Assembly: GCA_965217995.1 (NCBI GenBank)
Contig: CBDCKB010000004.1
Coordinates: 323,788 to 387,787, forward strand
Direction: 5' to 3'
DNA: 64,000 nucleotides
From: Rhodobacterales bacterium
GTDB taxonomy: Bacteria > Pseudomonadota > Alphaproteobacteria > Rhodobacterales > CAZPXZ01
Shown: one piece after another, positions 9,375 to 33,720 of the stretch
Layout: each line of letters starts with the position of its first letter
Position numbering within the stretch: the stretch's first letter is position 1
Made by a program: the position numbers and the translations under genes
The notes under the pieces: model-generated
Told to the model about the DNA's origin: nothing
Database searches by the model: none
The model's input: the letters and a program-made list of their open reading frames with translations, nothing else

Positions 9375-9398
9375 AGCCAACCCAAAAGGAGAGCAGGA

Positions 9399-15109: not shown

Positions 15110-15179
15110 TCACCTCGTTCGTTGGGATCTCGCTCGCCGTGGCTACGTGTGAACTGCAGATAGGTTGTTGTCCATTCGG

Positions 15180-15263
15180 CCCGGATCTGGGGCTGGATTG
15201 AGGATGCCCGCAAACGGGGTGCGGATTAGCTGTCGGCGAAATCTCCTATTCGCAGACCACTCC
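15180..15263. repeat. Right copy of the approximately 84-bp direct repeat
   Basis: See 14276-14359. This copy contains the genuine stop and 3' end of the convergent Excalibur-domain gene. Confidence 0.85.
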
Positions 15264-16037: not shown

Positions 16038-16226
16038 ACCGAATCCTGCCACGGTTACAGTCTGCAAATTTCACGGGCCGCATCTGGGAGGATTTCTGCA
16101 CATCAGCCTCCACCGGACAGTCCCAACCATCAAATATTCTTTCTACAAATACACTATTCGGGGCAACAGCACGGCAAGGTCACCCGATAATTGCCAAAAT
16201 CTGGCACCCACAAAACCCGAAACGAT

Positions 16227-18284: not shown

Positions 18285-19067
18285 TTAAGCGTGATCCAGC
18301 CTGTCGAGAAGTGCCGGGAGGTCGGCCACGGTGTCGATCACATGACCGACACCGGCCATCCGCAACCGGTCCGCCGCTCCGGCACGCAATGCTTCGACTT
18401 CGCCCGCCGACATCGCCGCCAGCTCCTCGACCGTCCGGCCGACATAATTGCCGGAGAGTGCAACCCCAACGGTGACGCAACCGACGGCCACACCCTCGCC
18501 GATTCCGGGTGCCGTGTCATCCACCTTGATCACCGCTGAGGGATCATCCACACCCAGCTCCTGGAAACACCGCTGCATCGCGGCCGGATTGGGCCGCGCC
18601 CGGGGAACGTCATCCGCACAGACTAGGCAGTCGGGTTCAAGACCCTGGGCAGCGGCGGCCGGAAGGACGCGCTCCATCACCGCGCGCGGATAGCCCGTGG
18701 TGGAGCCGATTTTGAGGCCCCGGGTGCGTAATTCCGTCACCATCTCCGCCGTCCCGGGGACCAGGCACGCCGCCTCCGCCGCGGCCTCCGCGCTCAGAGG
18801 AATGAAAATCTGCAGGATCTCGTCGATTTCGGCATCGCCCGCCTCCGCGCCATGCGCAGCACTCCACTGCCCGGCGATCCGGGGCATCTGCAGTATGGCC
18901 CGGATATGGTCCCGCTTGCCCAGTCCCATAGGTGCCCGCGCTTCCTCGATCGTGACCTCGACACCCGATGCGGCAAAAGCCTTTACAAACGCAACGGTCG
19001 GCGCGAAAGATCCGAAATCCACAAGGGTGCCCGCCCAGTCGAACACCACCATCCTGAATTTGCTCAT
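18285..19067 (-). CDS. phnX: Phosphonoacetaldehyde hydrolase (HAD superfamily)
   Basis: VVFDWAGTLVDFGSFAPTVAFVKAF...EEARAPMGLGKRDHIRAILQMPRIAGQW closely follows the PhnX N-terminal signature. Confidence 0.85.
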   Translation of the reverse strand: MSKFRMVVFDWAGTLVDFGSFAPTVAFVKAFAASGVEVTIEEARAPMGLGKRDHIRAILQMPRIAGQWSAAHGAEAGDAEIDEILQIFIPLSAEAAAEAACLVPGTAEMVTELRTRGLKIGSTTGYPRAVMERVLPAAAAQGLEPDCLVCADDVPRARPNPAAMQRCFQELGVDDPSAVIKVDDTAPGIGEGVAVGCVTVGVALSGNYVGRTVEELAAMSAGEVEALRAGAADRLRMAGVGHVIDTVADLPALLDRLDHA

Positions 19068-19548
19068 CCGGTCACCTTCAGCCTTGCAACCTGTCCGTTC
19101 GCACGAGAATGCACCTGATTTTCGTCCATGCCATGCACCCCGGTCAGTCTACCTTTCCTGCCAGTATTGCGCCCGTCGCGGCTGCGGATGCCCGTGGCAG
19201 GGCGGTGGCCAAGAACGGGGAGAACGCTCGGGGCAATGAAATTGGACCGACGCCCAGACCGATGTGCATGTGGTCGGCAGTGCCGCCTGAAGCGGTATGG
19301 ATGCACCGGAACTGGCCCCCTTCGAAAACTGCGCTATGGCCAAAACGCTCCAGGCATAGATCGGCGAATTCTGGTGCGTCTGCGGAAATTCCACCGGCAA
19401 CGGTACTAAGGTAACCTAAGATAGCCCCGGACGAGAAGAAAACTGATCATGCTCGGTCATTGGCCAGCACATGCTCGTTACCACCTAATAGAATTGTCAC
19501 CAAAAATACACCAATTCTGACTTCCAGATAGGTGTTTACCTTTCTCAC

Positions 19549-21651
19549 GTGCTATATTACGCTCTGGTGTTTCTATACTCTCATTGCATTGATGAAAGGC
19601 AGGATCTCGTGCGATATCTTCAGCAGATTATCTCCTTTGCAGCTCGCATTTTTTCGCCGAAATCGGTCATTGTCGATCGTGACACAAATTTTGAAACCGA
19701 GTTGGATGCATATAAGCAAGGCCGCTACGAAGTAGCCAAAAATATATGGAAAGCAGTCGCTGAGCAAGGACATGCTAGAGCCCAATTTCAATTGGGGATG
19801 ATGTACCACAACGGTAAAGGTGCACCCCAAAACTACAAAGAGGCCGCAAAATGGTACCAAAAAGCGGCCGAGCAAGGGAACCCAAAAGCGCAAAACAACC
19901 TAGGACTAATGTACGGTAGCGGCGAAGGCGTTCCCAAAAATTGCACAGAAGCCAAAGAGTGGCTTCTAAAAGCGGCCGAGCAAGGGAACCCTGAAGCTCA
20001 ATATAACCTAGGGACGATGTACCGCAACGGTGAAGGTATACCCACAAACTACAAAGAAGCCAAAAAATGGTACCAAAAAGCGGCTGAACAAGGAATCGCA
20101 AACGCTCAATATAACTTGGGAGTGATGTACACAAACGGAAAAGGCGTACCCCAAAACTGTACAAAAGCTGCAGAATGGTACCGAAAAGCGGCCGAGCAAG
20201 GAGATTCATCAGCTCAATATAACTTGGGGCTGGTGTATCACAGAGGTGAAGGCATACCCCAAAACTACCTAGAAGCCGAAAAATGGTATCGAAAAGCGAT
20301 CGAACAAGGGCACATAAAAGCTCAAAACAACCTGGGAGTGATGTACAAAAACGGTGAAGGTGTAACTCAAAACTACGCAATGGCCGAAAAATGGTACCGA
20401 AAAGCGGCCGAGCAAGGGCTCGCAGGAGCTCAATTTAACCTAGGATTGATATACACAAGTGGTGAAAGCGTAACTCCAAACCACACAGAAGCCGCAACAT
20501 GGTTCCAAAAAGCGGCCAAACAAGGGCACATAAAAGCCCAAAACAACCTAGGAGTAATGCACAACAACGGTGAAGGCGTAACTCAAAACTACGCAGAAGC
20601 CGAAGCGTGGTTTCTAAAAGCCGTCAAGCAAGGACTTGCAGAAGCTCAAAACAACCTGGGGATGATGTACAAAAACGGCGAAGGTGTGGCCCAAAACCAC
20701 GCAGACGCCGAAGCGTGGCTTTTAAAAGCAGCCGAGCAAGGACTTGCAGAAGCTCAAAACAACCTGGGGATGATGTGCAAAAACGGCGAAGGTGTGACCC
20801 AAAGCCACGCAAACGCCGAAGTGTGGTTTCTAAAAGCGGCCGAGCAAGGATTCGCAGAAGCTCAAAGCAACCTAGGGATGATGTACAAAAACGGTGAAGG
20901 TGTGACCCAAAGCCACGCAGACGCCGTAGAATGGATCCGAAAAGCGGCCGAGCAAGGATTCGCAGAAGCTCAAAGCAACCTAGGGATGATGTACAAAAAC
21001 GGTGAAGGTGTGACCCAAAGCCACGCAGACGCCGTAGAATGGATCCGAAAAGCGGCCGAGCAAGGGTTCGCAGAAGCTCAAAGCAACCTAGGGATGATGT
21101 ACAAAAACGGTGAAGGTGTGACCCAAAGCCACGCAGACGCCGTAGAATGGATCCGAAAAGCAGCCGATCAAGGACTCGCAGAAGCTCAATTTAACTTGGG
21201 ACGGATGTACGAAGACGGTGACGGCGTACCCAGAAACTACATCAAAGCCGCATCATGGTACCAAAAAGCGGCCGAGCAAAGGCATACAGAAGCTCAATTT
21301 CTATTATCACATATATATGCCAAACACCACGTTGTGCTGAAGGCCAAGCACCGCGCTGTGCGCGCTTTATCCCCACTACTTTGGATAGGCGGTATAATCG
21401 GCACTCAAGTTGTATTAAGATATATGAAAAAACCCCCTAAATTCCTTCAAAATCAATTATCTATGTATGCCAAGGGCCATAACCCTAGAAACTACATACG
21501 CGCCTATGCGTGGTGCAATCTCGCGGCCGCTGACAACTACGAAGATGCAAAAATACGCCTGTCAAAAATGGAAAAACGCATGACATCTGCCCAGATTGAA
21601 AAAGGCCAGGAGTCTAGCGAAGAAATGCTCACGCAAACCTCGCGTAAATAA
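19549..21651 (+). CDS. Sel1-repeat (SLR/TPR-like) protein, about 16 repeats
   Basis: It has reiterated 36-aa units of the form AQxNLGxMYxNGEGVxQNYxEAxKWYxKAAEQG. The track start is GTG 19549. The position homologous to the starts of the paralogs is GTG 19609 (RYLQQI...). Confidence 0.85.
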   Translation: MLYYALVFLYSHCIDERQDLVRYLQQIISFAARIFSPKSVIVDRDTNFETELDAYKQGRYEVAKNIWKAVAEQGHARAQFQLGMMYHNGKGAPQNYKEAAKWYQKAAEQGNPKAQNNLGLMYGSGEGVPKNCTEAKEWLLKAAEQGNPEAQYNLGTMYRNGEGIPTNYKEAKKWYQKAAEQGIANAQYNLGVMYTNGKGVPQNCTKAAEWYRKAAEQGDSSAQYNLGLVYHRGEGIPQNYLEAEKWYRKAIEQGHIKAQNNLGVMYKNGEGVTQNYAMAEKWYRKAAEQGLAGAQFNLGLIYTSGESVTPNHTEAATWFQKAAKQGHIKAQNNLGVMHNNGEGVTQNYAEAEAWFLKAVKQGLAEAQNNLGMMYKNGEGVAQNHADAEAWLLKAAEQGLAEAQNNLGMMCKNGEGVTQSHANAEVWFLKAAEQGFAEAQSNLGMMYKNGEGVTQSHADAVEWIRKAAEQGFAEAQSNLGMMYKNGEGVTQSHADAVEWIRKAAEQGFAEAQSNLGMMYKNGEGVTQSHADAVEWIRKAADQGLAEAQFNLGRMYEDGDGVPRNYIKAASWYQKAAEQRHTEAQFLLSHIYAKHHVVLKAKHRAVRALSPLLWIGGIIGTQVVLRYMKKPPKFLQNQLSMYAKGHNPRNYIRAYAWCNLAAADNYEDAKIRLSKMEKRMTSAQIEKGQESSEEMLTQTSRK
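20857..21180 (+). repeat. Three near-identical tandem 108-bp units (one Sel1 repeat each) inside the Sel1 gene
   Basis: Unit starts are at 20857, 20965 and 21073. The encoded peptide EAQSNLGMMYKNGEGVTQSHADAVEWIRKAAEQGFA appears three times. More diverged copies lie upstream from about 20590. Confidence 0.9.
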
Positions 21652-21859
21652 TTATAGCCGCTTGATTTCAAATTTGATTGCATGCAGTCATTCCTATTAT
21701 TACCCCGCCCGCTTTTGCACCCCCACATCCAAGCGAAGCATATTTCGATAGACTCAGCCGCATTTCATATTCCTACGCGTGGAAATCCATCAAATTGCCC
21801 CATCCAGGGCCAATCGCCTGACGGGTGTCTGTTTTTCAGAACTGCTGTAAGCTCAGTGC

Positions 21860-22051
21860 CTATTGTGGCATCTGCCACAAGGTCCGGACCATTTCCCGCC
21901 TACCGAGTTCCGTCGGTGCCCGCGCTTCCCTGATCGTGACCTCGACACCGGAGACAACACCGGCCTTCACAAATGCACCACCCAGCGCGAGCGACCCGAA
22001 ATCCACGAGAGCCCCCACCCCGTCAAAACCCGTGACCTGAAACCGCCCCAT
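21860..22051 (-). pseudogene. phnX 5' fragment (copy A)
   Basis: It encodes MGRFQVTGFDGVGALVDFGSLALGGAFVKAGVVSGVEVTIREARAP..., alignable to PhnX residues 1-63, and then ends. Confidence 0.7.
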
Positions 22052-22098
22052 CTTTCCCTTCTGGATCTCCGCGACCCGCCCGTCATCGCAGAGTTCAC

Positions 22099-22112
22099 TT
22101 GACCATTGTCAA
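22099..22112 (+). promoter_or_regulatory. FNR/Dnr/NnrR-type box TTGACCATTGTCAA (copy A)
   Basis: A perfect TTGAC-N4-GTCAA dyad centred about 80 bp upstream of the nosR-like ATG. It is identical in all three module copies. Confidence 0.5.
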
Positions 22113-22184
22113 TGCCCTGCGGCCCGGCCCACCTACCGTCTCTGTTGGTGTTGCACCCGAAAGCCGGCCGCAAATGGAACTCCG

Positions 22185-23042
22185 ATGCCTGTGATGTCCG
22201 ACATCCTGCGCCGTTCCGCCTGGTGCGCTGCCGCGCTGGCAGCCTGCATCGGCCTTGCCGCCAGCTCCGCCCCCGCCCAGCCAACCGGCCTCAACGCCTC
22301 CTAGCTTGCCCGCTACCTGCCGGAGGTCGAACCCGGCGAGCTGGTCCCCGAAGCCGATGCCTATGGCGCCATCCGCGAGGATCTGCCGGTCGCACCGGTC
22401 CTGCGCGGTGGCAGGATCATCGCCTGGGCGTTCCTCACCTCCGATCTCGTCGGCACGGTCGGCTATTCGGGCAAGCCCATCCATGTACTTGCCGCCGTCA
22501 GTCCCGATGCCCGCCTGGCGGGTGCCCGGCTGGTCGGCCATTCCGAGCCCATTGTCCTGGTCGGTATTCCGGAATCGAAAATCCAAGCCCTAACCGCACG
22601 CTATACCGGCTTCGACCTAACCCAAGCGAATGCCGAACGCGAACCCGACATCATCTCCGGAGCGACCGTCACGGTCGTGGTGATCGACGATTCGATCCTG
22701 CGCTCCGGCATCCGGGTCGCCCGGCTACTCGGTCTCGGCGGCATGGCACCCGAAGCCGATGCGGAGAGCGGGCCGGGCTATCGGCTGGCTTCCGATTCCG
22801 GCGCGGTGGAAAGCTGGATGGATCTGCTCGGCGACGGATCCATCCGCCGTCTCCATCTCGATCTCGAGCAGATCAACTCGGCTTTCGCTACCTCCAGAGA
22901 TGCGCAGGCTGCGGCCCGGCCGGAACGGGGCGCGCCGGAAGAGACCTTCATCGACCTCTGTGCAACCCTAGTCACCGCCCCCGCCATCGGTCGCAGCCTT
23001 GTAAACCATCAAACACATATGGCACTCCCGACAGGCGGGTGA
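22185..23042 (+). pseudogene. NosR/NirI-like regulator, 5' fragment with a premature stop (copy A)
   Basis: It has a signal-like N-terminus (MPVMSDILRRSAWCAAALAACIG) and GYSGKPIHVLAAV...GHSEPIVLVGIPE...DIISGATVTV (FMN-binding domain). An in-frame TAG lies at 22302-22304. The fragment is truncated at about 23042, next to the IS remnant. Confidence 0.7.
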
Positions 23043-23099
23043 AAGGCGCAAGAAAAGGCTGAAGGCAGGAAGGAAGCGAGCTGTCCGTTCGGGACACGG

Positions 23100-23570
23100 G
23101 GGATGGACTGACCTTGTCGGGTAGGTCAGCTGACGGTCTGCTACCCGGTCTCGAGACTGACCGCTACCGAACTCGTCACCACCCCTTCGGTGCGCAACAT
23201 GCGGGCGGCCTTCGAGCGCATCCTCAAGACCTTCCCAGTCGTCATCCGAGGGACCAGACCGACACCGGCTCCGAGTTCCGCAGTGCCTTCAAGGAACTCC
23301 TCTAAGAGCGCGGTATGGCCATGCAGGTCATCCCGCCACGCAGTCCCAAACAGAATGGCTGCGTCGAGTGGCACCGGCGCACCTAGCGCAAAGGGCTCTA
23401 CGAAATCCCTCCATCGCAACCACCCTTGACGAGTACAGGCGAGATGCTCGGCACTTCGTGGTTCACCACAACCGTGTCCGGCCCCATGCCGTACTTGGCA
23501 AAAGGGCACCCATCGGGTATCTACGCGAACATCACGGAGAGAGCAGAGCCTCCGCCGCAACCTGACCGCC
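23100..23570 (+). mobile_element. Degenerate IS481/IS3-like transposase (rve integrase core) remnant
   Basis: Split across frames it reads ...TDTGSEFRSAFKELL / ERGMAMQVIPPRSPKQNGCVEW / DEYRRDARHFVVHHNRVRPHAVLGKRAPIGYL. This matches the TDNGxEF ... PxTNGxVER ... YNxxRPHxALG pattern but contains stops and frameshifts. Confidence 0.55.
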
Positions 23571-23640
23571 ACCGACCCCGGTGGAAAAACCAACGCCGAC
23601 AAGGCCCGCTAGGAATGCTAGATGTAGTGATTGCGTGCAG

Positions 23641-23709
23641 GGGATTGGCCTTGCTCGCATGCTATATTATACATCGGTTTCCGTTTGCACTGATGAAAGG
23701 CAATATCTC
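23641..23709 (+). promoter_or_regulatory. Conserved 5' leader of the Sel1 cassette (copy 2)
   Basis: gggattggccttgctcgcatgctatattatacatcggtttccgtttgcactgatgaaaggcaatatctc-ATG is shared with 26692-26759 and partly with 19546-19608. It contains a TATATT element and an aaagg SD-like element. Confidence 0.35.
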
Positions 23710-25497
23710 ATGCGATATTTTCAGATCATAGCCCTTGTGGCCTGCATTTTGCTTCCGGCATCGGCCCTTGCCGGTGATGATGCAGATTATGAGACCGGCT
23801 TAAATGCATATAAGCAAGGCCACTACAAAACAGCCAAGGATATATGGCAAGCAGTAGCCGGCAAGGGGCATGCCGGAGCTCAATTTCACCTAGGGGTGAT
23901 ATACGACAAAGGCGAAGGCGTGCCCCAAGACTATGCAGAAGCCGCAGCATGGTTCCAAAAGGCGGCCGAGCAAGGACACGCAGAAGCTCAAAATTACCTA
24001 GGTGCGATGTACCTCATAGGTCAAGGCGTGCCCCAAAACTATGCAAAAGCCACAGCATGGTTCCAAAAAGCGACCGAGCAAGGACACGCAGAAGCTCAAC
24101 TTAACCGCGGAATAATGTACCTCACAGGTCAAGGTATGCCCCAAGACTATGCAGAAGCCGCAGCATGGTTCCGAAAAGCGGCCGAGCAAGGGCAGCCACA
24201 AGCTCAACTTAACCTAGGGGTGAGGTACGAAAAAGGCGAAGGCGTACCCCAAGACTATGCAGAAGCCGCAGCATGGTACCGAAAAGCGGCCAAGCAAGGG
24301 CGCCCACAAGCTCAACTTAACCTAGGGATGAGGTACGAAAAAGGCGAAGGCGCACCCCAAGATTATGCAAAAGCCGTAGCATGGTACCGAAAAGCGGCCG
24401 AGCAAAGACACCCAAAATCTCAATTTTACCTAGGGCTGATGTACTACAAAGGCGACGGCGTACCCCAAAACTATGCAGAAGCCACAGCGTGGTTCCGAAA
24501 AGCGGCCGAGCAAGAATACTCAGAATCTCAATTTTACCTAGGGTTGATATACGACGAAGGCGAAGGCAGGCCCCAAGACTATGCAGAAGCCGCAGCATGG
24601 TACCGAAAAGCGGCCGAGCAAGGGCACCCACAATCTCAACTTAACCTAGGGCTGATGTACCACAACGGTAAAGGCGTGACCCAGGACCATACAGAAGCCG
24701 CAGCATGGTTCCGAAAAGCGGCCGAGCAAAGGCACCCACAAGCTCAACTTAACCTAGGGGTGATGTACGATAACGGCGAAGGCGTTCCCCAAAATTATGC
24801 AAAAGCCGCAGCATGGTTCCGAAAAGCGGCCGAGCAAGGAGATCCTGACGGTCAATTTAACTTAGGGGTGAGGTACGAAAAAGGCAAAGGCGTGACCCAA
24901 GATCACAAAGAAGCCACGGTATGGTACCAAAAAGCGGCCAAGCAAGGGAACCCTAACGGTCAACTTAACCTAGGGGTGATGTACTACTACGGTTACGGCA
25001 GGCCCCAAGACTATGCAGAAGCCGCAGCATGGTTCCGAAAAGCGGCCGAGCAAAGACACCCAAAATCTCAACTTTACCTAGGGGTGATGTACTGCAAAGG
25101 CGAAGGCGTGGCCCAAAGTTACATCAAAGCAGCAGAATGGCACCGAAAAGCGGCCGAACAAGGATATGCAGAAGCTCAATCTGAACTAGGGCTGATGTAC
25201 TACAACAGTAAAGGTGTGACCCAAAATTATATCAAAGCGGCAGAATGGTTCCAAAAAGCGGCAGGGCAAGGACATGCCAAAGCTCAATATCTCCTAGGAA
25301 CGGCGTACTACCACGGTGAAGGCGTACCCCAGAGCAACATCTCCGCATATGCGTGGTGCAATCTCGCTGCTGATCAAAACCACGAGCACGCAAAAGAATG
25401 CCGCTCAAGCATTCAGAAGCGCATGACACCTGCCCAGATTGCTGAGGGGAAAGTTCTTAGTGAAGAGCTTTTTCGACAAATCCTACGCGATAATTAA
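23710..25497 (+). CDS. Secreted Sel1-repeat protein (about 14 repeats)
   Basis: ATG at 23710. The signal peptide is MRYFQIIALVACILLPASALAG. SLR units follow, and the C-terminal module is AYAWCNLAADQNHEHAKECRSSIQKRMTPAQIAEG. Confidence 0.9.
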   Translation: MRYFQIIALVACILLPASALAGDDADYETGLNAYKQGHYKTAKDIWQAVAGKGHAGAQFHLGVIYDKGEGVPQDYAEAAAWFQKAAEQGHAEAQNYLGAMYLIGQGVPQNYAKATAWFQKATEQGHAEAQLNRGIMYLTGQGMPQDYAEAAAWFRKAAEQGQPQAQLNLGVRYEKGEGVPQDYAEAAAWYRKAAKQGRPQAQLNLGMRYEKGEGAPQDYAKAVAWYRKAAEQRHPKSQFYLGLMYYKGDGVPQNYAEATAWFRKAAEQEYSESQFYLGLIYDEGEGRPQDYAEAAAWYRKAAEQGHPQSQLNLGLMYHNGKGVTQDHTEAAAWFRKAAEQRHPQAQLNLGVMYDNGEGVPQNYAKAAAWFRKAAEQGDPDGQFNLGVRYEKGKGVTQDHKEATVWYQKAAKQGNPNGQLNLGVMYYYGYGRPQDYAEAAAWFRKAAEQRHPKSQLYLGVMYCKGEGVAQSYIKAAEWHRKAAEQGYAEAQSELGLMYYNSKGVTQNYIKAAEWFQKAAGQGHAKAQYLLGTAYYHGEGVPQSNISAYAWCNLAADQNHEHAKECRSSIQKRMTPAQIAEGKVLSEELFRQILRDN

Positions 25498-25704
25498 ACC
25501 ATCTGGTTACAGATTTTAATCGAGCTCAACCGATCCCATTGTTCTCCGCCCGCTTTTGTACATTTCGCCCAAGGCAGGTATATTTCGGTGAACCCAACCG
25601 CGTTTCACATTCCTATGTGTGGAAGTTTATTTGGTTGCCCCCGCCCAGAGTCCAGCCGACTGACGAGAATCTGCTTTTTTTTGAAATCGCTGTAAGACCG
25701 GTGC

Positions 25705-25896
25705 CCATTGTGGCACCTGCCGCAAAGTCCGGACCGGTTCCCGCCTGCCCATTCCCGTCGGTGCCCGCACTTCCCCGATTGTGACCTCGACGCCGGAGAC
25801 AACATCGGCCTTCACAAACGCACCGCCCAGCGCGAACGACTCGAAATCCACGAGAATCCCCGCCCCATCAAAACCCGCGATCTGAAACTGCCCCAT
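25705..25896 (-). pseudogene. phnX 5' fragment (copy B)
   Basis: MGQFQIAGFDGAGILVDFESFALGGAFVKADVVSGVEVTIGEVRAPTGMGRREP... is alignable to the PhnX N-terminus. Confidence 0.7.
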
Positions 25897-25942
25897 CCTT
25901 CCCTTCTGGATCTCCGCGACCCGCTGTCATCGCCGAATTCAC

Positions 25943-25956
25943 TTGACCATTGTCAA
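25943..25956 (+). promoter_or_regulatory. FNR/Dnr/NnrR-type box TTGACCATTGTCAA (copy B)
   Basis: Same 14-mer and flanks (ttcacTTGACCATTGTCAAtgcc) as copy A. Confidence 0.5.
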
Positions 25957-26028
25957 TGCCCTGCGGCCCGGCCTGTCTACCGTCCCTGTCGGTGTTGCGC
26001 CCGAAAGCCGGCCGCAAATGGAACTCCG

Positions 26029-26688
26029 ATGCCTGTGATGTCCGACATCCTGCGTCGTTCCGCCTGGTGCGCTGCCGCGCTGGCAGCCTGCATCGGTCTT
26101 ATCGCCAGCTCCGCCTCCGCCCAGCCAACCGGCCTCAACGCTTCCTGGCTTGCCCGCTACCTGCCGGAGGTCGAGCCCGGCGAGCTAGTCCCCGGGGCAG
26201 ATGCCTATGGCGCCATCCACGAGGACCTGCCGGTCGCGCCGGTGCTACGCGGTAGCAAGACCATCGCCTGAGCGTTCCTCACCTTCGATCTCGTCGGCAC
26301 CGTCGGCTATTCGGGCAAACCCATCCATGTGCTTGCCGCCGTCAGTCCCGATGCCCGCTTTGCGGGTGTCCAGCTGCTCGGCCATTCCGAGCCCATTGTC
26401 CTAGTCGGCATTCCGAAATCAAAAATCCAGGCCCTGACCGCACGCTATACTGGCTTCGACCTGACCCAAGCGAATGCCGAACGCGAACCCGACATCATCT
26501 CCGGAGCGACCGCCACGGTCGTGGTGATCGACGATTCGATCCTGCGCTCCGGCATCCGGGTCGCCCGGCTGCTCGGTCTCGGCGACATGGCACCCGAAGC
26601 CGATGCGGGAAGCGGACCGGGCTACCGACTGGCTCCCGATTCCAGCACGGCGGAAAGCTGGATGGATCTGCTCGGCGATAGATCCATC
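26029..26688 (+). pseudogene. NosR/NirI-like 5' fragment with a premature stop (copy B), truncated by the Sel1 cassette
   Basis: It has the same reading frame as copy A. A TGA at 26269-26271 replaces the Trp codon of copy A (atcgccTGAgcg versus atcgccTGGgcg). Homology ends at ...LLGDRSIQ, where the Sel1 leader begins. Confidence 0.7.
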
Positions 26689-26691
26689 CAA

Positions 26692-26759
26692 GGGGTTGGC
26701 CTTGCTCGCATGTTATATTATACTTTGGCTTCCGTTTGGTCGATGAAGGGTAGCGAATC
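26692..26759 (+). promoter_or_regulatory. Conserved 5' leader of the Sel1 cassette (copy 3)
   Basis: ggggttggccttgctcgcatgttatattatactttggcttccgtttggtcgatgaagggtagcgaatc-ATG. Confidence 0.35.
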
Positions 26760-27710
26760 ATGCGATATTTTCAAATTATAGCCCTTGCGGCTTGCATTTT
26801 GCTTCCGGCATCGGCCATTGCCGGTGATGATGCAGATTATGAGGTCGGCTTGGATGCATATGGGCAAGGCTACTACAACACAGCCAAGGATATATGGCAA
26901 CCAATAGCCGACAAGGGGCATGCCGGAGCTCAATTTCACTTGGGGGGGATGTACTACTACGGTTACGGTGTGCCCCAAGACTATGCACAAGCCGCAAAAT
27001 GGATCGGAAAAGCGGCCGAACAAGAGTTCGTAAAAGCTCAATATAGCCTGGGGCTGATGTACTACCACGGTTACGGTGTGCCCCAAGACTATGCAGAAGC
27101 CGCAAAATGGTACCGAAAAGCGGACGAGCAAGGGTCCGCAAAAGCTCAATATAGCCTAGGGGTGATGTACTCCGAAGGCGACGGCGTGCCCCAAGACTAT
27201 GCACAAGCCGTAGCATGGTACCGAAAAGCGGCCGAGCAAGGGTTCGCAAAAGCTCAATATAACCTGGGGGTGATGTCCTACCACGGTTACGGTGTGCCCC
27301 AAGACTATGCACAAGCCGCAAAATGGTACCGAAAAGCGGCCGGGCAGAAGCACGCAGAAGCTCAATATAGCCTGGGGGTGATATACGACTACGGTCGGGG
27401 CATGCCCCAAGACTATGCACAAGCCGCAAAATGGTACCGAAAAGCGGCCGAGCAAGGGTACGGGGAAGCACAACTGAACCTCGGATGGATGTACGCCACA
27501 GGTCGAGGCGTGCCCCCGAGCATCAAACACGCCTATGCGTGGTGTGATCTCGCTACTGCTTATAACTACAACCTCGCACAAGAATGCCATTCAGGCTTTC
27601 GGAAGCTCCTGACACCTGCCATCATTGCCGAAGGACAAGCTCTTAGTAAAAAGCTTTCGGAAGAAATTTCACGTAAACAATTAAAACCATCTGGTTTGAA
27701 ATTTGATTGA
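26760..27710 (+). CDS. Secreted Sel1-repeat protein (about 7 repeats)
   Basis: The signal peptide is MRYFQIIALAACILLPASAIAG. SLR units have the form AQYSLGxMYxxGxGVPQDYAQAAKWYRKAAEQG. The C-terminal AYAWCDLA module is shared with the paralogs. Confidence 0.9.
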   Translation: MRYFQIIALAACILLPASAIAGDDADYEVGLDAYGQGYYNTAKDIWQPIADKGHAGAQFHLGGMYYYGYGVPQDYAQAAKWIGKAAEQEFVKAQYSLGLMYYHGYGVPQDYAEAAKWYRKADEQGSAKAQYSLGVMYSEGDGVPQDYAQAVAWYRKAAEQGFAKAQYNLGVMSYHGYGVPQDYAQAAKWYRKAAGQKHAEAQYSLGVIYDYGRGMPQDYAQAAKWYRKAAEQGYGEAQLNLGWMYATGRGVPPSIKHAYAWCDLATAYNYNLAQECHSGFRKLLTPAIIAEGQALSKKLSEEISRKQLKPSGLKFD

Positions 27711-27879
27711 GTGCCGCCAACCCCACTACCTCTCCACCTGCTTTTGTACCCTGCACTCAAGGCAGGTATATTTCGGCGGACCCAACCGTGTTTCACATTC
27801 CTATGTGTGAAAATCCATTAAATTGCCCCCGTTTAGGTCCAATCGGCTGATGGGTGTCTATTTTTAAAGACTGCTATAA

Positions 27880-28080
27880 GATCGATGCTCGTTGTGGCGT
27901 CTACCTCAGAGCCCGAACCGCTGACCGCCTGCCCATTTCCGTCGGTGCCCGCACTGCCCCGATCGTGACCTCGATGCCATAAGCGGCAACGGCCTTTCAC
28001 AAATGCATTACCCGGCGCGAACGACCCGAAATCCACGACAGTCCCACCCCGTCAAATACCCTGACCTGAAACCGCCCCAT
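27880..28080 (-). pseudogene. phnX 5' fragment (copy C, most degraded)
   Basis: The DNA aligns to copies A and B (ccgtcggtgcccgcac...gtgacctcga...gaaatccacga). Translation needs frameshifts (MDFGSFAPGNAFVKG...). Confidence 0.5.
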
Positions 28081-28128
28081 TCCGTCCTCCATAGATCTCC
28101 GCGACCCGCCCGTCATCGCAGAATTCAC

Positions 28129-28142
28129 TTGACCATTGTCAA
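28129..28142 (+). promoter_or_regulatory. FNR/Dnr/NnrR-type box TTGACCATTGTCAA (copy C)
   Basis: Identical 14-mer. Confidence 0.5.
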
Positions 28143-28222
28143 TGCCTGCGGCCCGGCCCGTCTACCGTCCCTGTCGGTGTTGCGCCCGAAAGCCGGCCGC
28201 AAATGGAACTCCGAAGCCTGTG

Positions 28223-29310
28223 ATGTCCGACATCCTGCGCCGTTCCGCCTGGTGCGTTGCTGTGCTGGCAGCCTGCATCGGTCTTGCCGCCAGCTCTCCG
28301 CCCCCGCCCAACCAACCGGCCTCAACGCTTCCTGGCTTGCCCGCTACCTGCCGGAGGTTGAGCCCGGCGAGCTGGTCCCCGAGGCCGAGGCCGATGGCGC
28401 CATTCGCGAGGATCTGCCGGTCGCGCCGGTGCTGCGCGGTGGCAGGATCATCGCCTGAGCGTTCCTCACCTCCGATCTCGTCAGCACGGTCGGCTATTCG
28501 GGCAAGCCCATCCATGTGCTTGCCGCCGTCAGTCCCGATGCCCGCCTGGCAGGTGTCCGGCTGGTCGGCCATTCCGAGCCCATTGTCCTGGTCGGCATTC
28601 CGGAATCGAAAATCCAGGCCCTGACCGCACGCTATACCGGCTTCGACCTGACCCAGGCGAATGCCGAACGCGAACCCGACATCATCTCCGGAGCGATCGT
28701 CACGGTCGTGGTGATCGACGATTCGATCCTCCGCTCCAGCATCCGAGTCGCTCGGCTGCTCGGTCTCGGCGGCATGGCTCCCGAAGCCGATGCGGAGAGC
28801 GGGCCGGGCTATCGGCGGGCTCTCGATTCCGGCGCGGCGGAAAGCGGGATGGAACTGCTCGGCGACGGATCCATCCGCCGCCTCCATCTCGATCTCGAGC
28901 AGGTCAACTCGGCTTTCGCTACCTCCAGCGATGCCCGGGCCGCGCGCGGCCCGGCCGGAACGGGGCGCGCCGGAAGAGACCTTCATCGACCTCTATGCAA
29001 CCCTCGCCACCGCTCCTGCCATCGGCTGTAGCCTGCTTGGCCAAGCCGAGCTCGATCGCCTCGATTCCTGGCTTGAGCCCAGCGAGCACGCGCTCCTAAT
29101 CGCCGCTCGGGGCCGCTACTCCTTCAAGGGATCCGGCTATGTGCGGGGGGGGGTATTTTCGATCGCATCCATCTCGTCCAGGGAGACCGCAGTGTGCGCT
29201 TCCGCGACCGCCAGCACCGGCGGCTGGGCGCCCTAGCCACAGCGGATTCGCCACGCCTCTCCGAAATCGACCTGTTCCGGATTCCTCCTGATTCGGGCTT
29301 CGACCCGGCC
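28223..29310 (+). pseudogene. NosR/NirI-like gene fragment (copy C, the longest) with a nonsense codon and several frameshifts
   Basis: There is a 2-nt insertion near 28290 and the same TGA as copy B at 28456-28458. A frameshift lies near 28935 and another in a G9 run at 29145-29153. It extends further than A and B into ...RGRYSFKGSGYVRGG / IFDRIHLVQGDRSVRFRD...EIDLFRIPPDSGFDP. Confidence 0.65.
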
Positions 29311-29547
29311 CTGGCGGTCTCCGTGTCTCTCGGCACGCGTTTCAGCGAATCCGGAGAACAGGGGTATATCCTCGACCCCCGCAGCGGTCGCCCGGGTGGA
29401 AAATGGCGGCAGGTTGCAGTCATGGCACCGGGGGCGGCCTTAGCCGACGCGCTCTCGACCGCGCTCTGCCTGCTTCCGGAAGAGAAAATCTTACATATCC
29501 GGCAGGTCTGGCCGGATGCCAAAAATCGGCTACTGCCGGTCGTATAG
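29311..29547 (+). pseudogene. ApbE/NosX-family flavin transferase, C-terminal remnant fused in frame to the nosR-like fragment
   Basis: AVSVSLGTRFSESGEQGYILDPRSGRPGGKWRQVAVMAPGAALADALSTALCLL fits the ApbE C-terminal pattern (TSGdY...H.iDPrtG.P...V.V.a....ADAlsTA). Confidence 0.5.
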
Positions 29548-29695
29548 GGACCCACCCGAGAGCACGCAGCACCTCCCTGGTCCAGCAAACGCAACCCCTT
29601 TCACCGGACTGAGAGGTCGGGCGGGCCGCCGATGGCTTTGGATTTCCGAAATCTTGTTGCAAATTGCCTATGGTGTTCGATATTCAAACAGCATG

Positions 29696-29848
29696 CTGAA
29701 ATCACTTTCAATATTCATGATATATGCTGAAATTACTTTCAATTTTCAGGCTATACCATGAAATTGCTTTCAATATTCATAGTATAAATGGCACACTTTC
29801 AATATTCAGACTATATACTGAAATTACTTTCAATATTCACTATACAGG
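29696..29848 (+). repeat. Five tandem approximately 31-bp iteron-like repeats
   Basis: The core CTGAAATTACTTTCAATATTCA starts at about 29696, 29727, 29758, 29790 (partial) and 29818. The array ends 8 bp before the ATG of the ATPase gene. Confidence 0.85.
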
Positions 29849-29855
29849 TAAAACC

Positions 29856-31016
29856 ATGATCCCCCGCAACAACTTTATCAAGCGGCTGAATGCGGCTCTA
29901 GAACGGAACCGGGTGGTGGTCCTCACCGGCCCGCGCCAAAGCGGCAAGACCACGCTCGCACGCCAACTGGTCCAAAAAAATACGCCCAACTACTTCGACC
30001 TGGAGGATCCGATCAGCCTAGATCGGCTGGATCAACCGATGACCGCGCTGGCACCGCTACGCGGACTCGTCGTGGTGGACGAGGTGCAGCGACGGCCGGA
30101 TCTGTTCCCCATCCTCCGGGTGCTTGCGGACCGTGAGAACGAGCCCGCCAAATTCCTTATCCTCGGAAGTGCGTCGGGAGACCTGCTGCGCCAATCCTCC
30201 GAAAGCCTGGCGGGACGGGCCGCGCGCCTGACACTGAACGGCTTTCATCTGAGCGAAGTTGGTACTGAGCAGAGCACGACCCTATGGCTTCGTGGCGGGT
30301 TACCGCAGTCACATCTGGCACGGGATGATGACGAAAGCTTCCTGTGGCGCGAGCAGTATGTGCAGGATCTGCTGGAACGCGATTTCCCCCAATGGGGCGT
30401 GCGCACTTCCGCGACCGCTCTACGCCGCTTCTGGAACATGCTCGCCCACTATCACGGACAGGTCTGGAACGCCTCCCCGCCGGCCCGGGCAATGGAGGTG
30501 AGCCCGCCTACCATACGCCGCTATCTGGATCTTCTGACCGATGCGTTCATGATCCGGCAACTGCCGCCCTACCATACAAATCTCGGGAAGCGGCAGATCA
30601 AGTCGCCGAAAATCTACATCCGGGACAGTGGAATCCTGCACCAGCTTCTCACCATCAAAACCGAGGGCGACCTGCTCACCCATCCCGCTCTGGGGGTATC
30701 ATGGGAAGGATTTGTCATCGAACAACTGCTTGCGCAACTCGAACCGGATGAGGCGTATTTCTGGGGCATCCATCAGGGCGCCGAAATCGATCTCGTGCTC
30801 CATAGGGGGGGCCGCTGGATTGGCGTGGAATGCAAGCGCAAGGATGCACCGCGCATAACGCGCTCCATCCAAACCGCCCTCGATGATCTGGGCCTCGAAC
30901 GTGTCGTGATCGTGTATCCCGGTGAGAAGTCGTACCCCCTGAACGAACAGGTCCATGTCATGCCGTTCCACATGCTGGGGTCGGCGCAGGAAACCTTCGC
31001 ACAATTCAGATTCTGA
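29856..31016 (+). CDS. AAA-domain ATPase with a DUF4143-like C-terminus
   Basis: ATG at 29856 (MIPRNNFIKRL...). It has Walker A (GPRQSGKTT), VVVDEVQ, LGSASGDLLRQSSESLAGR and the C-terminal GAEIDLVLHRGGRWIGVECK. Confidence 0.8.
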   Translation: MIPRNNFIKRLNAALERNRVVVLTGPRQSGKTTLARQLVQKNTPNYFDLEDPISLDRLDQPMTALAPLRGLVVVDEVQRRPDLFPILRVLADRENEPAKFLILGSASGDLLRQSSESLAGRAARLTLNGFHLSEVGTEQSTTLWLRGGLPQSHLARDDDESFLWREQYVQDLLERDFPQWGVRTSATALRRFWNMLAHYHGQVWNASPPARAMEVSPPTIRRYLDLLTDAFMIRQLPPYHTNLGKRQIKSPKIYIRDSGILHQLLTIKTEGDLLTHPALGVSWEGFVIEQLLAQLEPDEAYFWGIHQGAEIDLVLHRGGRWIGVECKRKDAPRITRSIQTALDDLGLERVVIVYPGEKSYPLNEQVHVMPFHMLGSAQETFAQFRF

Positions 31017-31204
31017 TTCACATGCTGCCGCCCGGTAGAGCTTATGACGGATCACCAGAACTAGCGGCAAGGCCGAGTGCTGCATACAAGCTACCATCGG
31101 AGAATGGGCTTATGTGGTCACCCACAGGTCACCACGCAATAAATAATGCGGTCAGTTTTCAACCTAGCTTCATCGCCACAATTGGCACCGACCTCACGGT
31201 GGTC

Positions 31205-31300
31205 TAAAAAAGCAGACACCCATCAGCCGGTTGGGCATCGACAGAAACAACCTATTAAGCTTCCACAACCAAGAAATACCGCTCCGATGTTCCTGGCCTC
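31205..31300 (-). repeat. Inverted, diverged copy of the Sel1 3'-flank segment
   Basis: aaaaaagcagacacccatcagccggttggg is the reverse complement of ccaatcggctgatgggtgtctattttt (27838-27866; similar at about 21808-21838 and about 25653-25682). Weaker similarity continues for about 60 bp. Confidence 0.45.
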
Positions 31301-31683
31301 ATGATGCCCAATCAGATTGTCGATACACAGACCCTCGGCAGGAAATTTTCTGCGAACTTTCTGCGAACGTAGAGGTCGGTCACCAACCCACACCTTATTC
31401 TATCCGAGGCCTTGCTTTGCTGACTGTTTTCGCCTATACGGGATCATACAGCACACTGCATGGCAGTGATTCGAGGTAGCATCACATGCGGTATTCCCAT
31501 ATAACCGCCCGTGCCGACCGGGTTTCTTCCCCGAAACCCGTGATGGCCTGCTATGATGCAGATATTGAAGCAGGTTTGATTGCAATGAGCCGACCATTGG
31601 ATATCCACAACAAATGCATGGCGAACAGCCGTCATGCAAAGAAAGGAAATAACTCAATTTAACCCGGAGGTGGATATACTCCA

Positions 31684-33126
31684 ATGCGTAAGAATAGAAA
31701 ACACAGAATAAAAAAAGCCCGCGACAAACTCGTCACGGCAATCGTAGCACACTACCGAACAGGTGCCGAGCAAGGGGAAGCAGAAGCTCAACTTCACCTT
31801 GGGGCGCTGTACTGTGTCGGGGAGGGTGTCCCCAAAGATTACAAAAAAGCCGCGATATGGCTTCGAAAATCGGCCGAGCAAGGAGAGCCGCAAGCTCAAT
31901 CTCGCCTGGGGTCGCTGTACCTTTATGGAAACGGTGTCCCCCAGGACCATGCGGAAGCCTTGGCATGGTTCCGAAAATCGGCCGAGCAAGGGGAGCCTGA
32001 CGGCCAACATGGCCTGGCGGGGATGTACCTTGCCGGGGTGGGTGTCCCCCGGGACCCTGCAAAAGCCATCGCGTGGCTCCGAAAAGCGGCCGAGCAAGGG
32101 CACCCCAACTCTCAATGTGGTTTAGGGGTCCTGTTCAATTTCGGTGAGGGCGTGCCCCAAGACCATGCAGAAGCCGCAATATGGCTCCGGAAAGCGGCCG
32201 AGCAAGGACATCCCGAAGCTCAAACTCGCCTGGCGGAGATGTACCATCTCGGTAACGGCGTGCCCCAAGATGACGCAGAAGTCACAGCATGGCTCCGAAA
32301 AGCGGCCCAGCAAGGGCACCCCGAGGCTCAAACTCGCTTGAGAGAGATGAACCATCCCGGTAACGGTGTACCCCCCCAAGATCACGCAGCAGCCGTAGCA
32401 CGATGCCGAACAGCGGCCAAGCTAGGAGACCCTGACGGTCAACATAACCTGGCGAAGATGTACCTTTTCGGACAGGGTGTTCCCGAAGACCCCGCAAAAG
32501 CCATAGCATGGTTCCAAAAAGCGGCAGAGCAAGGACACCCCGAAGCTCAGTCTCACTTGGGGGAGATATACTATTTCGGTAGGGGCGTGCCTCAAGACTA
32601 CGCAAAAGCCCTGACATGGGTCCGAAAAGCGGCCGAACAAAATCTGCCGGCAGCTCAAGGTGTCTTGGCGGCGATGTACGGTAACGGTGAGGGCGTGCCC
32701 CAAGACCTGGCAAAAGCCGTGGCATGGGCACAAAAAGCGGCCAGCCAGGGGAACTGCGAATCCCAATACAACCTGGGGCAGACATACAGGAACGGTAATG
32801 GCGTCCCTCAGGACCCCGCAAAAGCCGCGGCATGGTTCCGGAAAGCGGCCGAGCAAGGGCACCCCCAAGCTCAAGGTATCCTGTCGGCGATGTACCATGT
32901 CGGCGAAGGCGTGCCCCAGGATTACGGAGAAGCCATGGCATGGTGCAAAAAATCAGCCGAGCAAGGGGATCCACAAGCTCAATTCAACATGGGGGTGATG
33001 TACTACAAAGGTGAGGGCGTGCTCCAGGATTACGAAACAGCCACAGTATGGTTCAAAAAAGCGGCCCAGCAGGGGCATTCCCAGGCGCAAGAGACTCTGA
33101 CTTTCGTCAGCAGTGGATACCGCTAG
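31684..33126 (+). CDS. Sel1-repeat protein (about 12 repeats), no obvious signal peptide
   Basis: An RBS ggagg lies upstream of ATG 31684. Repeats have the form AQxxLGxxYxxGxGVPQDxAKAxAWxRKAAEQGHP. GC is higher than in the other three Sel1 genes. Confidence 0.85.
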   Translation: MRKNRKHRIKKARDKLVTAIVAHYRTGAEQGEAEAQLHLGALYCVGEGVPKDYKKAAIWLRKSAEQGEPQAQSRLGSLYLYGNGVPQDHAEALAWFRKSAEQGEPDGQHGLAGMYLAGVGVPRDPAKAIAWLRKAAEQGHPNSQCGLGVLFNFGEGVPQDHAEAAIWLRKAAEQGHPEAQTRLAEMYHLGNGVPQDDAEVTAWLRKAAQQGHPEAQTRLREMNHPGNGVPPQDHAAAVARCRTAAKLGDPDGQHNLAKMYLFGQGVPEDPAKAIAWFQKAAEQGHPEAQSHLGEIYYFGRGVPQDYAKALTWVRKAAEQNLPAAQGVLAAMYGNGEGVPQDLAKAVAWAQKAASQGNCESQYNLGQTYRNGNGVPQDPAKAAAWFRKAAEQGHPQAQGILSAMYHVGEGVPQDYGEAMAWCKKSAEQGDPQAQFNMGVMYYKGEGVLQDYETATVWFKKAAQQGHSQAQETLTFVSSGYR

Positions 33127-33720
33127 AATTGCATACACCCTGTGCTTTCCGGATGTTCATGGCTGTTCGCAAAGACGGCCACACAGAGAATTCCTTTTGG
33201 ATATCCGGAAAGCCAGGGCATCCGCGTGGATTGCTGAGGGGCAATATCTTGGCAATAACCCCTGAGCATCCTGCAAGTGGCAATTGCAGCTATCGTTTTT
33301 AAATTTTGTCGGGTCCAACCCAGGCCACTGCTTTGTTCACTTGATTTCATGCATTTTTTCGATGCAGGTATATTGTGGCTGACTCAATTGTTCATCGTGT
33401 TACCGGGCGTGATCCAAATCAAGCTGCCCAACCCTCAGACTGCTGCCCAAGAAACATTTCCGGAAATCCCCATACGCTCTGCAGGCAACCCAGGCCTTGA
33501 AATTTCCCCGGAGAGCCGACCGTCGCCCTCGCCCGCACGAAAGCGCCCATGCAGATCCATCGCCGGTCTGCCGGGATACAGGCTTCCCGGCCAGACGGTG
33601 GTTTCGTGCGTTCCCCTGCCGGATGGCGTAAAACCCTGCCATGGCCGCCCGCTGCACCGACATTCCGTTACGCACCGTCTCTGGCGGCCATTCCGCATCG
33701 TTCCCCGGAAAGGCACAGTC

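Follow-up and report, generated by a model that had tools for sequence, protein, structure and literature searches.

A variable array of Sel1-repeat genes in tandem units with phnX and nosR fossils and IS481 remnants in an uncultured alphaproteobacterium

Expansion of the Sel1-repeat family is a recurring signature of host-associated bacteria, and the route to it is usually inferred from gene counts. Sponge-associated bacteria carry Sel1-repeat gene clusters, a share of them with Sec signal peptides and a resemblance to LpnE (PMC12625764). Helicobacter pylori has eight or nine slr genes that evolve rapidly, with lineage-specific alleles and a ratio of nonsynonymous to synonymous divergence (dN/dS) above 1 (PMC1941758), and its slr/hcp genes (HcpA-E and others) form an expanded secreted family (PMC1941758, PMC3608669). 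Here we describe such genes in a window of 64,000 nt, the whole stretch of DNA that we analysed (Rhodobacterales bacterium, contig CBDCKB010000004.1, positions 323,788 to 387,787); the organism is an uncultured, deep-branching alphaproteobacterium. Between phnX and pgi lie four genes for Sel1-repeat (SLR) proteins, g1 to g4, three of which (g1-g3) are found in head-to-tail units together with fragments of phnX and nosR (phnX' and nosR', the fossil of each unit) and remnants of insertion sequences (IS) of the IS481 family. We consider it probable that these units are IS481-bracketed SLR cassettes, which homologous recombination has amplified and moved and which evolve fast, in a decayed phnX/nos locus.

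Like the sponge-associated Sel1 genes, the SLR genes described here are clustered, some have signal peptides and their context varies between strains; to these traits the locus adds tandem units that carry a fossil, IS481 brackets and strain-by-strain differences in copy number. The likeness to Helicobacter slr/hcp lies in an expanded, fast-evolving SLR family within one lineage, and g3 matches HcpC (1OUV) in sequence. Hcp proteins, however, are cysteine-rich with one disulfide per repeat, and hcp genes are dispersed rather than arranged in tandem units; in the translations of g1-g4 we found no regularly paired cysteines within the repeats. Legionella LpnE, EnhC and LidL and Escherichia coli EsiB are SLR alpha-solenoids with signal peptides that bind host molecules, and here the likeness is that of the generic repeat only. 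ExoR, AlgK, MotX and MerG are periplasmic Sel1-repeat proteins whose NCBIfam models match the SLR genes partially, at scores far under the curated cutoffs (134 vs 350, 84 vs 700, 58 vs 450 and 50 vs 330), and membership of g1-g4 in these families was rejected. As for movement, IS-mediated tandem amplification and translocatable units are textbook mechanisms. With IS26-type composite transposons and translocatable units, the locus has in common a cargo between IS copies of the same family, an IS at a tandem junction and dispersed IS-flanked units; it differs in that the elements are IS481, that the window contains remnants of them, that the circle is one we infer, and that the cargo is a repeat-protein gene with pseudogene fragments and not resistance. 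Symbionts are already known to have Sel1 genes clustered in variable contexts, and the locus is no new kind of system.

The four plus-strand SLR open reading frames (ORFs) span 19.5-33.1 kb, and their tandem repeats fit the Pfam Sel1 profile (PF08238, E-values 1e-59 to 1e-163) with 108-nt periodicity; matched stretches and repeat copies are listed in Table 1. The original prediction, made by a first reading of the sequence, had described four such genes in a region of lower GC than its flanks, and this was confirmed: g1-g4 have a GC content of 0.48-0.58 and a GC content at third codon positions (GC3) of 0.47-0.58, against 0.61-0.67 and 0.68-0.77 in phnX, ocd, the epimerase gene and pgi. The gene lengths given there (700, 596, 316 and 480 aa) hold for three of the genes, whereas g2, read from the MRYFQ ATG at 23710 to 25497, has 595 aa and not 596. 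Two GTG codons could start g1, at 19549 (700 aa) or at 19609 (680 aa), the latter being homologous to the ATG of g2 and g3. Three identical 36-aa repeats are found in g1, and their 108-nt units are 86-93% identical.

A leader, a C-terminal AYAWC module and a 3' flank are shared by g1-g3, and the putative signal peptide looks intact in g2 and g3 and degenerate in g1, all as predicted. The leader begins ~70 nt upstream of the start codon ('AGGGGTTGGCCTTGCTCGCATGCTATATTATAC'), and from -80 to +170 g2 and g3 are 85% identical, with g1 ~70% identical to either. The AYAWC module and 3' flank are absent from g4, which is also leaderless and has a basic, non-hydrophobic N-terminus with no predicted signal peptide; it belongs to a different SLR subfamily with a separate history. 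Signal peptides were judged heuristically from the charge of the n-region, the Kyte-Doolittle score of the h-region and an AxA site. The N-termini of g2 and g3 combine MRYFQ, a positively charged n-region, a hydrophobic core and an ASA-(I/L)A site before G, and their h-regions score 3.3-3.5 by this heuristic, which g1 (1.66) and g4 (1.12) fail. The prediction of an exported family therefore stands for two of its members, and judging from these N-termini export of g2 and g3 through the Sec pathway is probable; the prediction does not extend to g1, with its degenerate N-terminus, or to g4. The N-terminus of g1 (ISF..RI..RIFSP) recurs in SLR genes of two of the related loci described below (L081_s2 and L084_s1), indicating that it is a maintained variant rather than fresh damage. 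A lipoprotein signal was considered and rejected: the lipobox look-alike (LAAC/LVAC) has its Cys at residue 12, and its -1 position is not conserved in relatives.

Sequence matches of g3 to solved SLR proteins in PDB (6OK3, 2.6e-109; EsiB 4BWR, 3e-89; 8SXQ; 6DEH, 6e-59; HcpC 1OUV, 3.8e-35) imply, through 6OK3, 4BWR and 1OUV, that the SLR products would fold as alpha/alpha solenoids. A single-sequence AlphaFold2 model of g3 was unusable (mean predicted local distance difference test score, pLDDT, 49), with helices that recur with the repeat period. A homologue search with g3 returned generic Sel1 proteins only (no more than 51% identity, across 78% of the length, and owed to the repeats) and no orthologues, and exact-protein look-ups of g3 and phnX gave no identical record.

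The units that contain g1-g3 have a common order: the ~70-nt leader, the SLR ORF, the 3' flank, a minus-strand stretch of phnX (61 codons), an intergenic region of ~140 nt and the 5' part of nosR (220-340 codons) on the plus strand. The 3' flank is made up of ~90 nt of 3' untranslated region (UTR) followed by 60-125 nt from the 3' end of an IS481-type transposase gene, left as an inverted remnant, and the junction of the flank with phnX' is common to all units. Self-BLAST gave three long direct matches outside the Sel1 periodicity, each with E = 0: 21495-22999 with 27524-29034 (84.7% over 1517 nt), 21501-22845 with 25344-26689 (84.7%) and 24741-26689 with 26927-28876 (80.7%). This similarity between units begins within the last Sel1 repeat and not past the stop codon, and the unit cores (phnX', intergenic region and nosR') are 90-92% identical pairwise, with a host-like GC of 0.65-0.66. 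Module-level similarity was thus found, as was the expected head-to-tail co-amplification of SLR genes with phnX and nosR pieces in copies that differ in repeat number and sequence. The blocks first proposed are alignable, with the unit ends corrected to 22999 (at an IS), at 26689 (on the g3 leader) and at ~29236 (in a fusion with apbE).

Related loci (L081 to L090) were taken from nine contigs, all from one ENA metagenome assembly (ERZ25071859), which we reached through a NosR' protein search (seven truncated relatives, 78-92% identity) and through members of the phnX and pgi clusters; among species-representative genomes, the best PhnX match was only 64% identical. Flanking genes of these contigs differ from those of the window by a synonymous divergence (dS) of 0.10-0.18, indicating sister strains or very close species. 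Across them the locus carries one, two or three leader-type SLR-plus-fossil units, head to tail and with shared internal junctions as expected of tandem amplification, with SLR products from ~200 to 1771 aa (Table 1). There is one unit in L090 and L084, two are present in L083 and three in the window; the arrays of L081/L087, L088/L086 and L089 are rearranged, and extra SLR genes have 300, 388, 986 and 1771 aa. The prediction that the locus varies among relatives was therefore decisively upheld over an invariant locus. The largest gene, in the 53x strain (L086 1932-7247), has 35 GxG-motif matches and sits exactly at the right end of the IS remnant upstream of g4, and the 986-aa product (L081 1592-4552; also in L087 and L089) ends in a glycine-zipper-like hydrophobic tail (GVAGGVASGVGSVVGSV...). 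Alleles are also mosaic: g2 and L083_s2 share 98.5% identity in the leader and signal-peptide region at the 5' end but only 79% at the 3' end, and L083_s2 has ~11 repeats fewer than g2. Content left of ocd differs between strains as well, with further SLR genes there in L087, L088, L083 and L089.

Mis-joining or duplication of repeats by the assembler would be a concern in any region this rich in repeats, the more so as the related contigs are long-read metagenome assemblies and some have low coverage. Such an artefact is extremely improbable here, since the three units differ by 8-20% and end in three different junctions, and independent contigs at 13-53x coverage reproduce both the unit anatomy and the IS breakpoint.

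IS-B', which joins unit 1 to g2, is an internally deleted IS481-family element bounded by a left inverted repeat TGTAAACCATCAAAC and a right end GTAGTGATTGCGTGCA; 22999-23126 corresponds to positions 1-129, and 23126-23633 to positions 771-1271, of a 1.27-kb full IS-B copy in L085. It carries an rve_3 transposase fragment (E 9e-5). Related full IS copies carry LZ_Tnp_IS481 and rve, and it is these full relatives that display the traits of IS481 (a DDE transposase, an N-terminal helix-turn-helix/LZ_Tnp_IS481 and a length of ~1-1.3 kb), the window holding a remnant only. The terminal inverted repeats of IS-B' are imperfect (~36 nt, ~75% identity; ends TGTAAAC...GCGTGCA), and no target-site duplication was found around it in the window, which is as expected for a recombinant IS and proves nothing. 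Inverted IS481 remnants end the 3' flanks at 21813-21869 in unit 1 and 27801-27923 in unit 3, and more weakly in unit 2. Unit 1 stops at 22999, where it abuts IS-B', and the g2 leader begins at the first base past the right end of the IS. Unit 2 stops at 26689 and is fused straight to the g3 leader without an IS, and unit 3 continues to ~29236, where it is fused to a C-terminal fragment of ApbE. The sequence of the 26689 nosR'::leader junction was absent from 90 of 90 fetched loci, and one end of this window-specific junction falls within a base of the right terminus of IS-B.

Units were also found away from the array. One (L082) lies ~150 kb from a phnX locus on the same 1.36-Mb contig, beside rubrerythrin and pyruvate kinase genes; another (L085) has as neighbours genes for an M78 peptidase and for a protein with a faint autotransporter match. 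Both have IS-B pieces on either side, so that the same cargo is flanked by one IS at more than one genomic site, as in a composite transposon, and their outer ends are rearranged or of low coverage. The breakpoint between nosR' and IS-B is identical in the window, L081, L083 and the dispersed L082, and near-identical in L085, where it is shifted by a few nt. This shared breakpoint indicates that array and dispersed copies descend from a single insertion of IS-B into nosR. The fossil thus acts as a barcode, according to which every unit, the dispersed copies included, descends from one site, while IS481 remnants mark the junctions and co-occurring strains show the one-, two- and three-unit states.

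The original prediction had explained the array in simpler terms: one Sel1 cassette landed between phnX and nosR, and unequal recombination, taken here as purely local crossing-over with no mobile elements, amplified it with pieces of both adjacent genes into an exported family. Head-to-tail units that include pieces of both neighbours, a 26689 junction that is a direct nosR'::leader fusion without an IS, and a unit number that differs among strains all agree with that explanation. Nevertheless, it appears unlikely to us in this form. The SLR genes do lie between phnX and a nosR remnant, but the intergenic region is joined to nosR' in every unit, so a cassette did not simply land between the two. 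Tandem units do call for recombination, but an IS481 occupies the junction of unit 1 and g2, IS remnants end the 3' flanks, and the unit and its breakpoint recur in L082 and L085, indicating movement linked to IS and not only local unequal crossing-over. The phnX' pieces are 70-73% identical to the adjacent phnX and ~90% identical to one another, and a good signal peptide is found in only two of the four products.

The age of the fossil bears on the same question. Intact phnX is 93-97% identical in related strains and forms the left border of the array. That the units contain pieces of this neighbouring gene, as had been proposed, was not borne out in the sense of recent copies: the phnX' fragments are only 70-73% identical to it, a reconstructed ancestral phnX' differs from it at proportions of synonymous (pS) and nonsynonymous (pN) sites of 0.45 and 0.24, and the catalytic DWAGT motif reads DGVGA in the phnX' consensus and is lost in all three 61-codon pieces. 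The segment 18883-19175 likewise aligns with the module copies at 70-73%. A direct duplication of ~290 bp (phnX codons 1-61 plus the intergenic region) brackets the SLR gene even in the one-copy loci L090 and L084, and its two copies are only 70-79% identical. The two intergenic parts left of g1 (ig0a and ig0b, Table 1) are in the same place in L083, L084 and L087-L090, at 75-92% identity. From pS, pN and the loss of the motif, the duplication is several times older than the split of the strains, or else its right-hand copy was imported.

The nosR' copies are pseudogene fragments. Only the N-terminal 220-390 codons are left of a protein that at full length has FMN-binding, transmembrane and 4Fe-4S parts; model NF046105 matches the N-terminal half alone (258 bits, cutoff 1000), with a weak FMN_bind match. 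In unit 1 the fossil (M1) has TAG where the others have TGG, those of units 2 and 3 (M2 and M3) share a TGA, and M3 is frameshifted as well. Over the three codon positions, substitutions in a comparison of ten copies number 62/58/91, which is near neutral. The fusion of nosR' to apbE' is also found in L081, L083, L088 and L090, and L084 (5411-6464) keeps NosL and ApbE pieces between nosR' and the apbE' point, so the locus is the scar of a former nos gene cluster. A nosR'-ApbE fusion is likewise present on a more distant contig (protein P0237), whose pgi is 69% identical, and the decay of the nos cluster may thus be old.

Low phnX' identity might instead reflect a different species, with the whole block from the SLR genes to apbE' imported from a divergent donor that had its own phnX-nosR cassette. 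Such an import would fit the 70-79% identity between phnX/ig0a and phnX'/intergenic region, a pN/pS of 0.53 that suggests time under selection, an SLR GC3 far under that of the host and the recent transfer of g4 between strains described below. It would also fit the other Alphaproteobacteria, in which nosR was within 10 kb of phnX in 0 of 80 loci and no ancestral phnX-nosR arrangement was found. We regard it as quite improbable, however: the fossil modules have the host-like GC of 0.65-0.66 and are contiguous rightward with apbE', the ATPase gene and pgi in synteny in all strains, there is no second, resident-type nosR, and homologous integration at ~71% identity would be inefficient.

Our preferred account, IS481-bracketed cassettes amplified and moved by homologous recombination, would proceed as follows. 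The cassette would consist of the leader (with a sigma-70-like motif and a Shine-Dalgarno sequence), the SLR ORF and the short 3' UTR, bracketed by inward-pointing IS481-family ends. A copy beside phnX/nosR would have gained 61 phnX codons, the 5' half of nosR and the intergenic region, which today are pseudogenes, and the unit of IS-B, SLR and fossil would then have multiplied. Recombination between IS-B copies in direct orientation, the first lying in nosR and the second immediately before an SLR leader, could release a circle composed of IS-B, SLR gene, 3' flank, phnX', intergenic region and nosR' up to the breakpoint. Re-entry of this circle into a one-unit chromosome by a single homologous crossover in the segment from SLR to nosR' would create a tandem array, and would explain the structure of L083 and the window, which have one inner IS-B, none outside and a last nosR' that runs past the breakpoint. 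Crossover of the circle with an IS-B elsewhere would give dispersed copies flanked by IS-B. Later unequal crossing-over and deletions would change the number of units, the 26689 nosR'::leader junction being one such outcome, and recombination among 108-nt Sel1 units would alter the number of repeats. The leader may act as a promoter, and g2 and g3 may be Sec-exported alpha-solenoid binding scaffolds. A promoter-like TTGGCC-17-TATACT is found at 26696-26724 in the g3 leader, the only leader that scored in our scan, and a weak terminator-like hairpin lies at 21815-21827, 3' of g1. Site-specific diversification, or diversification of the diversity-generating retroelement (DGR) type, was rejected, as no recombinase or reverse transcriptase is present at the locus; no inverted repeats were found between cassette ends. 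An Rfam search of 18-36 kb (E <= 0.1) and a tRNA scan found nothing, and so no riboswitch and no tRNA integration site.

Several observations weigh against this account. Promoter and terminator matches in the scan were no commoner than in shuffled sequence. Neither a circular intermediate nor an active transposase was seen in the window, and IS-B' is internally deleted. With its star shape (86-93% identity), the tree of the ten module copies does not resolve in which order they were duplicated. Units differ from one another by 8-10%, about as much as strains differ neutrally, so the presence of three copies may be old, with units lost in other strains, rather than a new gain. The related contigs were all taken from the single assembly and several are covered only 2-5x, so that sequencing error may account for some of their frameshifts and for a few percent of their divergence. 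The account leaves the origin of the ~290-bp duplication unexplained, and the pN/pS values near 1 in the SLR genes, given next, are equally compatible with relaxed constraint.

In the unique ends of the paralogues, pN/pS was 0.3-1.0 at the N-terminus and 0.8-1.3 at the C-terminus, a rough estimate from 66-codon ends, against 0.07-0.26 in neighbouring genes. The SLR ORFs stay open while the equally old, adjacent nosR' fragments carry stops, which points to an SLR function under relaxed or diversifying selection, without proof of either. The array could also be decaying baggage, its SLR genes nonfunctional and gained and lost neutrally in a recombination-prone, IS-rich island; in keeping with this, pN/pS is ~1 in the C-terminal module, the g1 signal peptide is degenerate, dead phnX'/nosR' pieces, IS remnants and a decayed nos cluster surround the genes, and g4 seems disrupted in L083 (low coverage) and in L086. 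We give this possibility little credence, because ORFs of 316-700 aa (in relatives up to 1771 aa) remain open in AT-richer sequence despite 15-30% divergence at their ends, yet each adjacent nosR' copy of the same age bears stops or frameshifts. The strains have kept the signal peptide, the leader and the C-terminal module, three of them also the variant N-terminus of g1, and g4, with no nonsynonymous divergence (dN = 0), has spread recently between strains. The fast evolution of the SLR genes fits a role at a changing interface, which might be with a host, the cell envelope or phage.

For g4 itself, only 5 of 1443 nt differ from L081 15286-16728 (99.7% identity; dS 0.015, dN 0), compared with a dS of 0.15-0.18 in the flanking ATPase gene and pgi. 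In L084, g4 is 98% identical and located at another position beside an IS481, and the flanks there are only 87-89% identical. The low dS and the position in L084 together indicate recent exchange of g4 alone between strains. This leads us to a bolder proposal that we put forward tentatively and hold to be doubtful: IS481 elements and SLR genes may form a self-propagating cassette system in which IS-bracketed units are excised, return to arrays or enter other IS copies, and spread from one co-existing strain to another, making phnX-pgi a contingency locus at the level of the population. If so, the interval would give each strain its own set of exported or anchored repeat proteins with which to deal with a host, phage or neighbouring cells, and the dS of g4, lower by ~10-fold, would count among the signs of cassettes exchanged between strains. 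The locus is a good natural system in which to measure cassette gain and loss, change in repeat number and exchange between strains, and it could serve to test whether the variation is selected.

Table 1. Coordinates of features in the window and order of elements in the related loci (M1-M3, fossils of units 1-3; SLR followed by a number, SLR gene with product length in aa; ig, intergenic region; x, coverage)
Feature or locus	Position	Strand	Description
phnX, intact	18285..19067	-	TIGR01422 equivalog, 317 bits vs cutoff 220; Pfam HAD; FDWAGT motif
ig0a + ig0b	19068..19530	.	ig0a 19068-19175, old phnX-nosR intergenic copy; ig0b 19176-19530, spacer
g1, leader + ORF	19531..21651 (ORF 19549-21651)	+	700 aa; 14 Sel1 stretches, Pfam E 1e-163; 13.9 108-nt copies, 79% match; degenerate leader; hydrophobic stretch near C-terminus, then AYAWC module
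3' flank of g1	21652..21866	-	distal ~21813-21869 is inverted IS481-type transposase remnant (ISx ~945-1005; tblastx, alignment)
M1 fossil	21867..22999	.	phnX' 21867-22051 (-); intergenic 22052-22193; nosR' 22194-22999 (+), TAG stop
IS-B'	23000..23639	+	IS481-family, internally deleted, positions ~130-770 missing; joins unit 1 to g2
g2, leader + ORF	23640..25497 (23581-25497, frame open from 23581)	+	14 Sel1 stretches, E 4e-153; 13.1 108-nt copies, 80% match; leader 23640-23709; predicted Sec-type signal peptide MRYFQIIALVACILLPASALA before G; AYAWC module
3' flank + M2	25498..26689	.	phnX' 25712-25896 (-); intergenic copy; nosR' 26038-26689
g3, leader + ORF	26690..27710 (ORF 26760-27710)	+	316 aa; 6 Sel1 stretches, E 2e-59; 5.0 108-nt copies, 85% match; leader with promoter-like motif; predicted signal peptide; AYAWC module
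3' flank + M3	27711..29236	.	phnX' 27925-28081 (-); intergenic copy; nosR' 28223 to ~29236
ApbE C-terminal fragment	29237..29547	+	Pfam ApbE 4e-9; last ~77 codons of apbE, fused to M3 nosR'
AAA_14/DUF4143 ATPase	29856..31016	+	Pfam; conserved neighbour outside the repeat unit; present in all related loci
IS481-type 3'-end remnant	31055..31269	+ (direct)	~415 nt upstream of g4; ISx 832-1043 (blastn, tblastx)
g4	31684-33126	+	480 aa; 11 Sel1 stretches, E 3e-127; 11.3 108-nt copies, 69% match
pgi	33721..35334	+	Pfam PGI; right border of variable region; closest named homologues 52-56% identical
Window			g1(680/700) - M1 - IS-B' - g2(595) - M2 - g3(316) - M3 - apbE' - ATPase - g4 - pgi
L090 (15x)			one unit: phnX - ig0 - SLR575 - 3' flank - phnX' - ig - nosR' - apbE' - ATPase
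L084 (2x)			one unit: nos remnant longer; g4 elsewhere, beside an IS481
L083 (5x)			SLR522 - unit - IS-B' - SLR ~200 aa (198 from ATG) - unit - apbE' - SLR388 - ATPase - g4 - pgi
L087 + L081 (16x)			SLR566 - IS481 - SLR986 - unit - IS-B' - SLR709 - unit - apbE' - SLR300 - ATPase - g4 - pgi
L088 + L086 (53x)			SLR566 - truncated unit - IS-B - SLR ~700 aa - nosR' - apbE' - ATPase - (IS-B end + SLR1771) - g4 - pgi
L089 (13x)			SLR716 - phnX' - IS481 - SLR986 - IS481

The ATPase gene to the right of the units matches the PADLOC candidate defence family PDC-S01 (1.5e-88), and an AT-rich 31-nt tandem repeat (29696-29839; 4.7 copies, 75% match) lies just upstream of its probable start at 29856. A split defence pair, with the ATPase as nucleoside triphosphatase and g4 as sensor, was considered and rejected, as their adjacency is not conserved: in L084 the ATPase gene is beside pgi, the interval fetched for L090 lacks g4, and in L086 the 1771-aa gene lies between them.

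Beyond pgi, a low-GC (0.43-0.51) DISARM-like island on the minus strand (35889-44729) encodes DrmB, DrmA, a UvrD-type helicase, an HNH nuclease and a C5 cytosine methylase. Sister strains lack the island; in L081 a short insert of another kind links pgi to what is position 44876 of the window, the same site in L086 has DarT-DarG, and in L090 SNF2 and Eco57I genes follow the ATPase gene. Defence islands have a hot spot here, in the phnX-pgi neighbourhood. The combination of numerous SLR genes with IS elements and such islands does no more than hint at a symbiotic way of life.

Elsewhere in the window, two adjacent segments of ~950 nt (49443-50396 and 50382-51336) are 87% identical; their ORFs, of 318 and 334 aa, are tandem paralogues with no relation to the SLR array. 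A direct repeat of 88 nt with 92% identity (14275-14362 and 15179-15266) brackets ~0.9 kb where GC dips to 0.60, just 5' of a gene with a GmrSD_C/Excalibur domain (15246-16067). Finally, a 1751-aa ORF on the minus strand (5829-11084) has NERD nuclease-related and UvrD_C_2 domains and may be a defence or helicase-nuclease gene.

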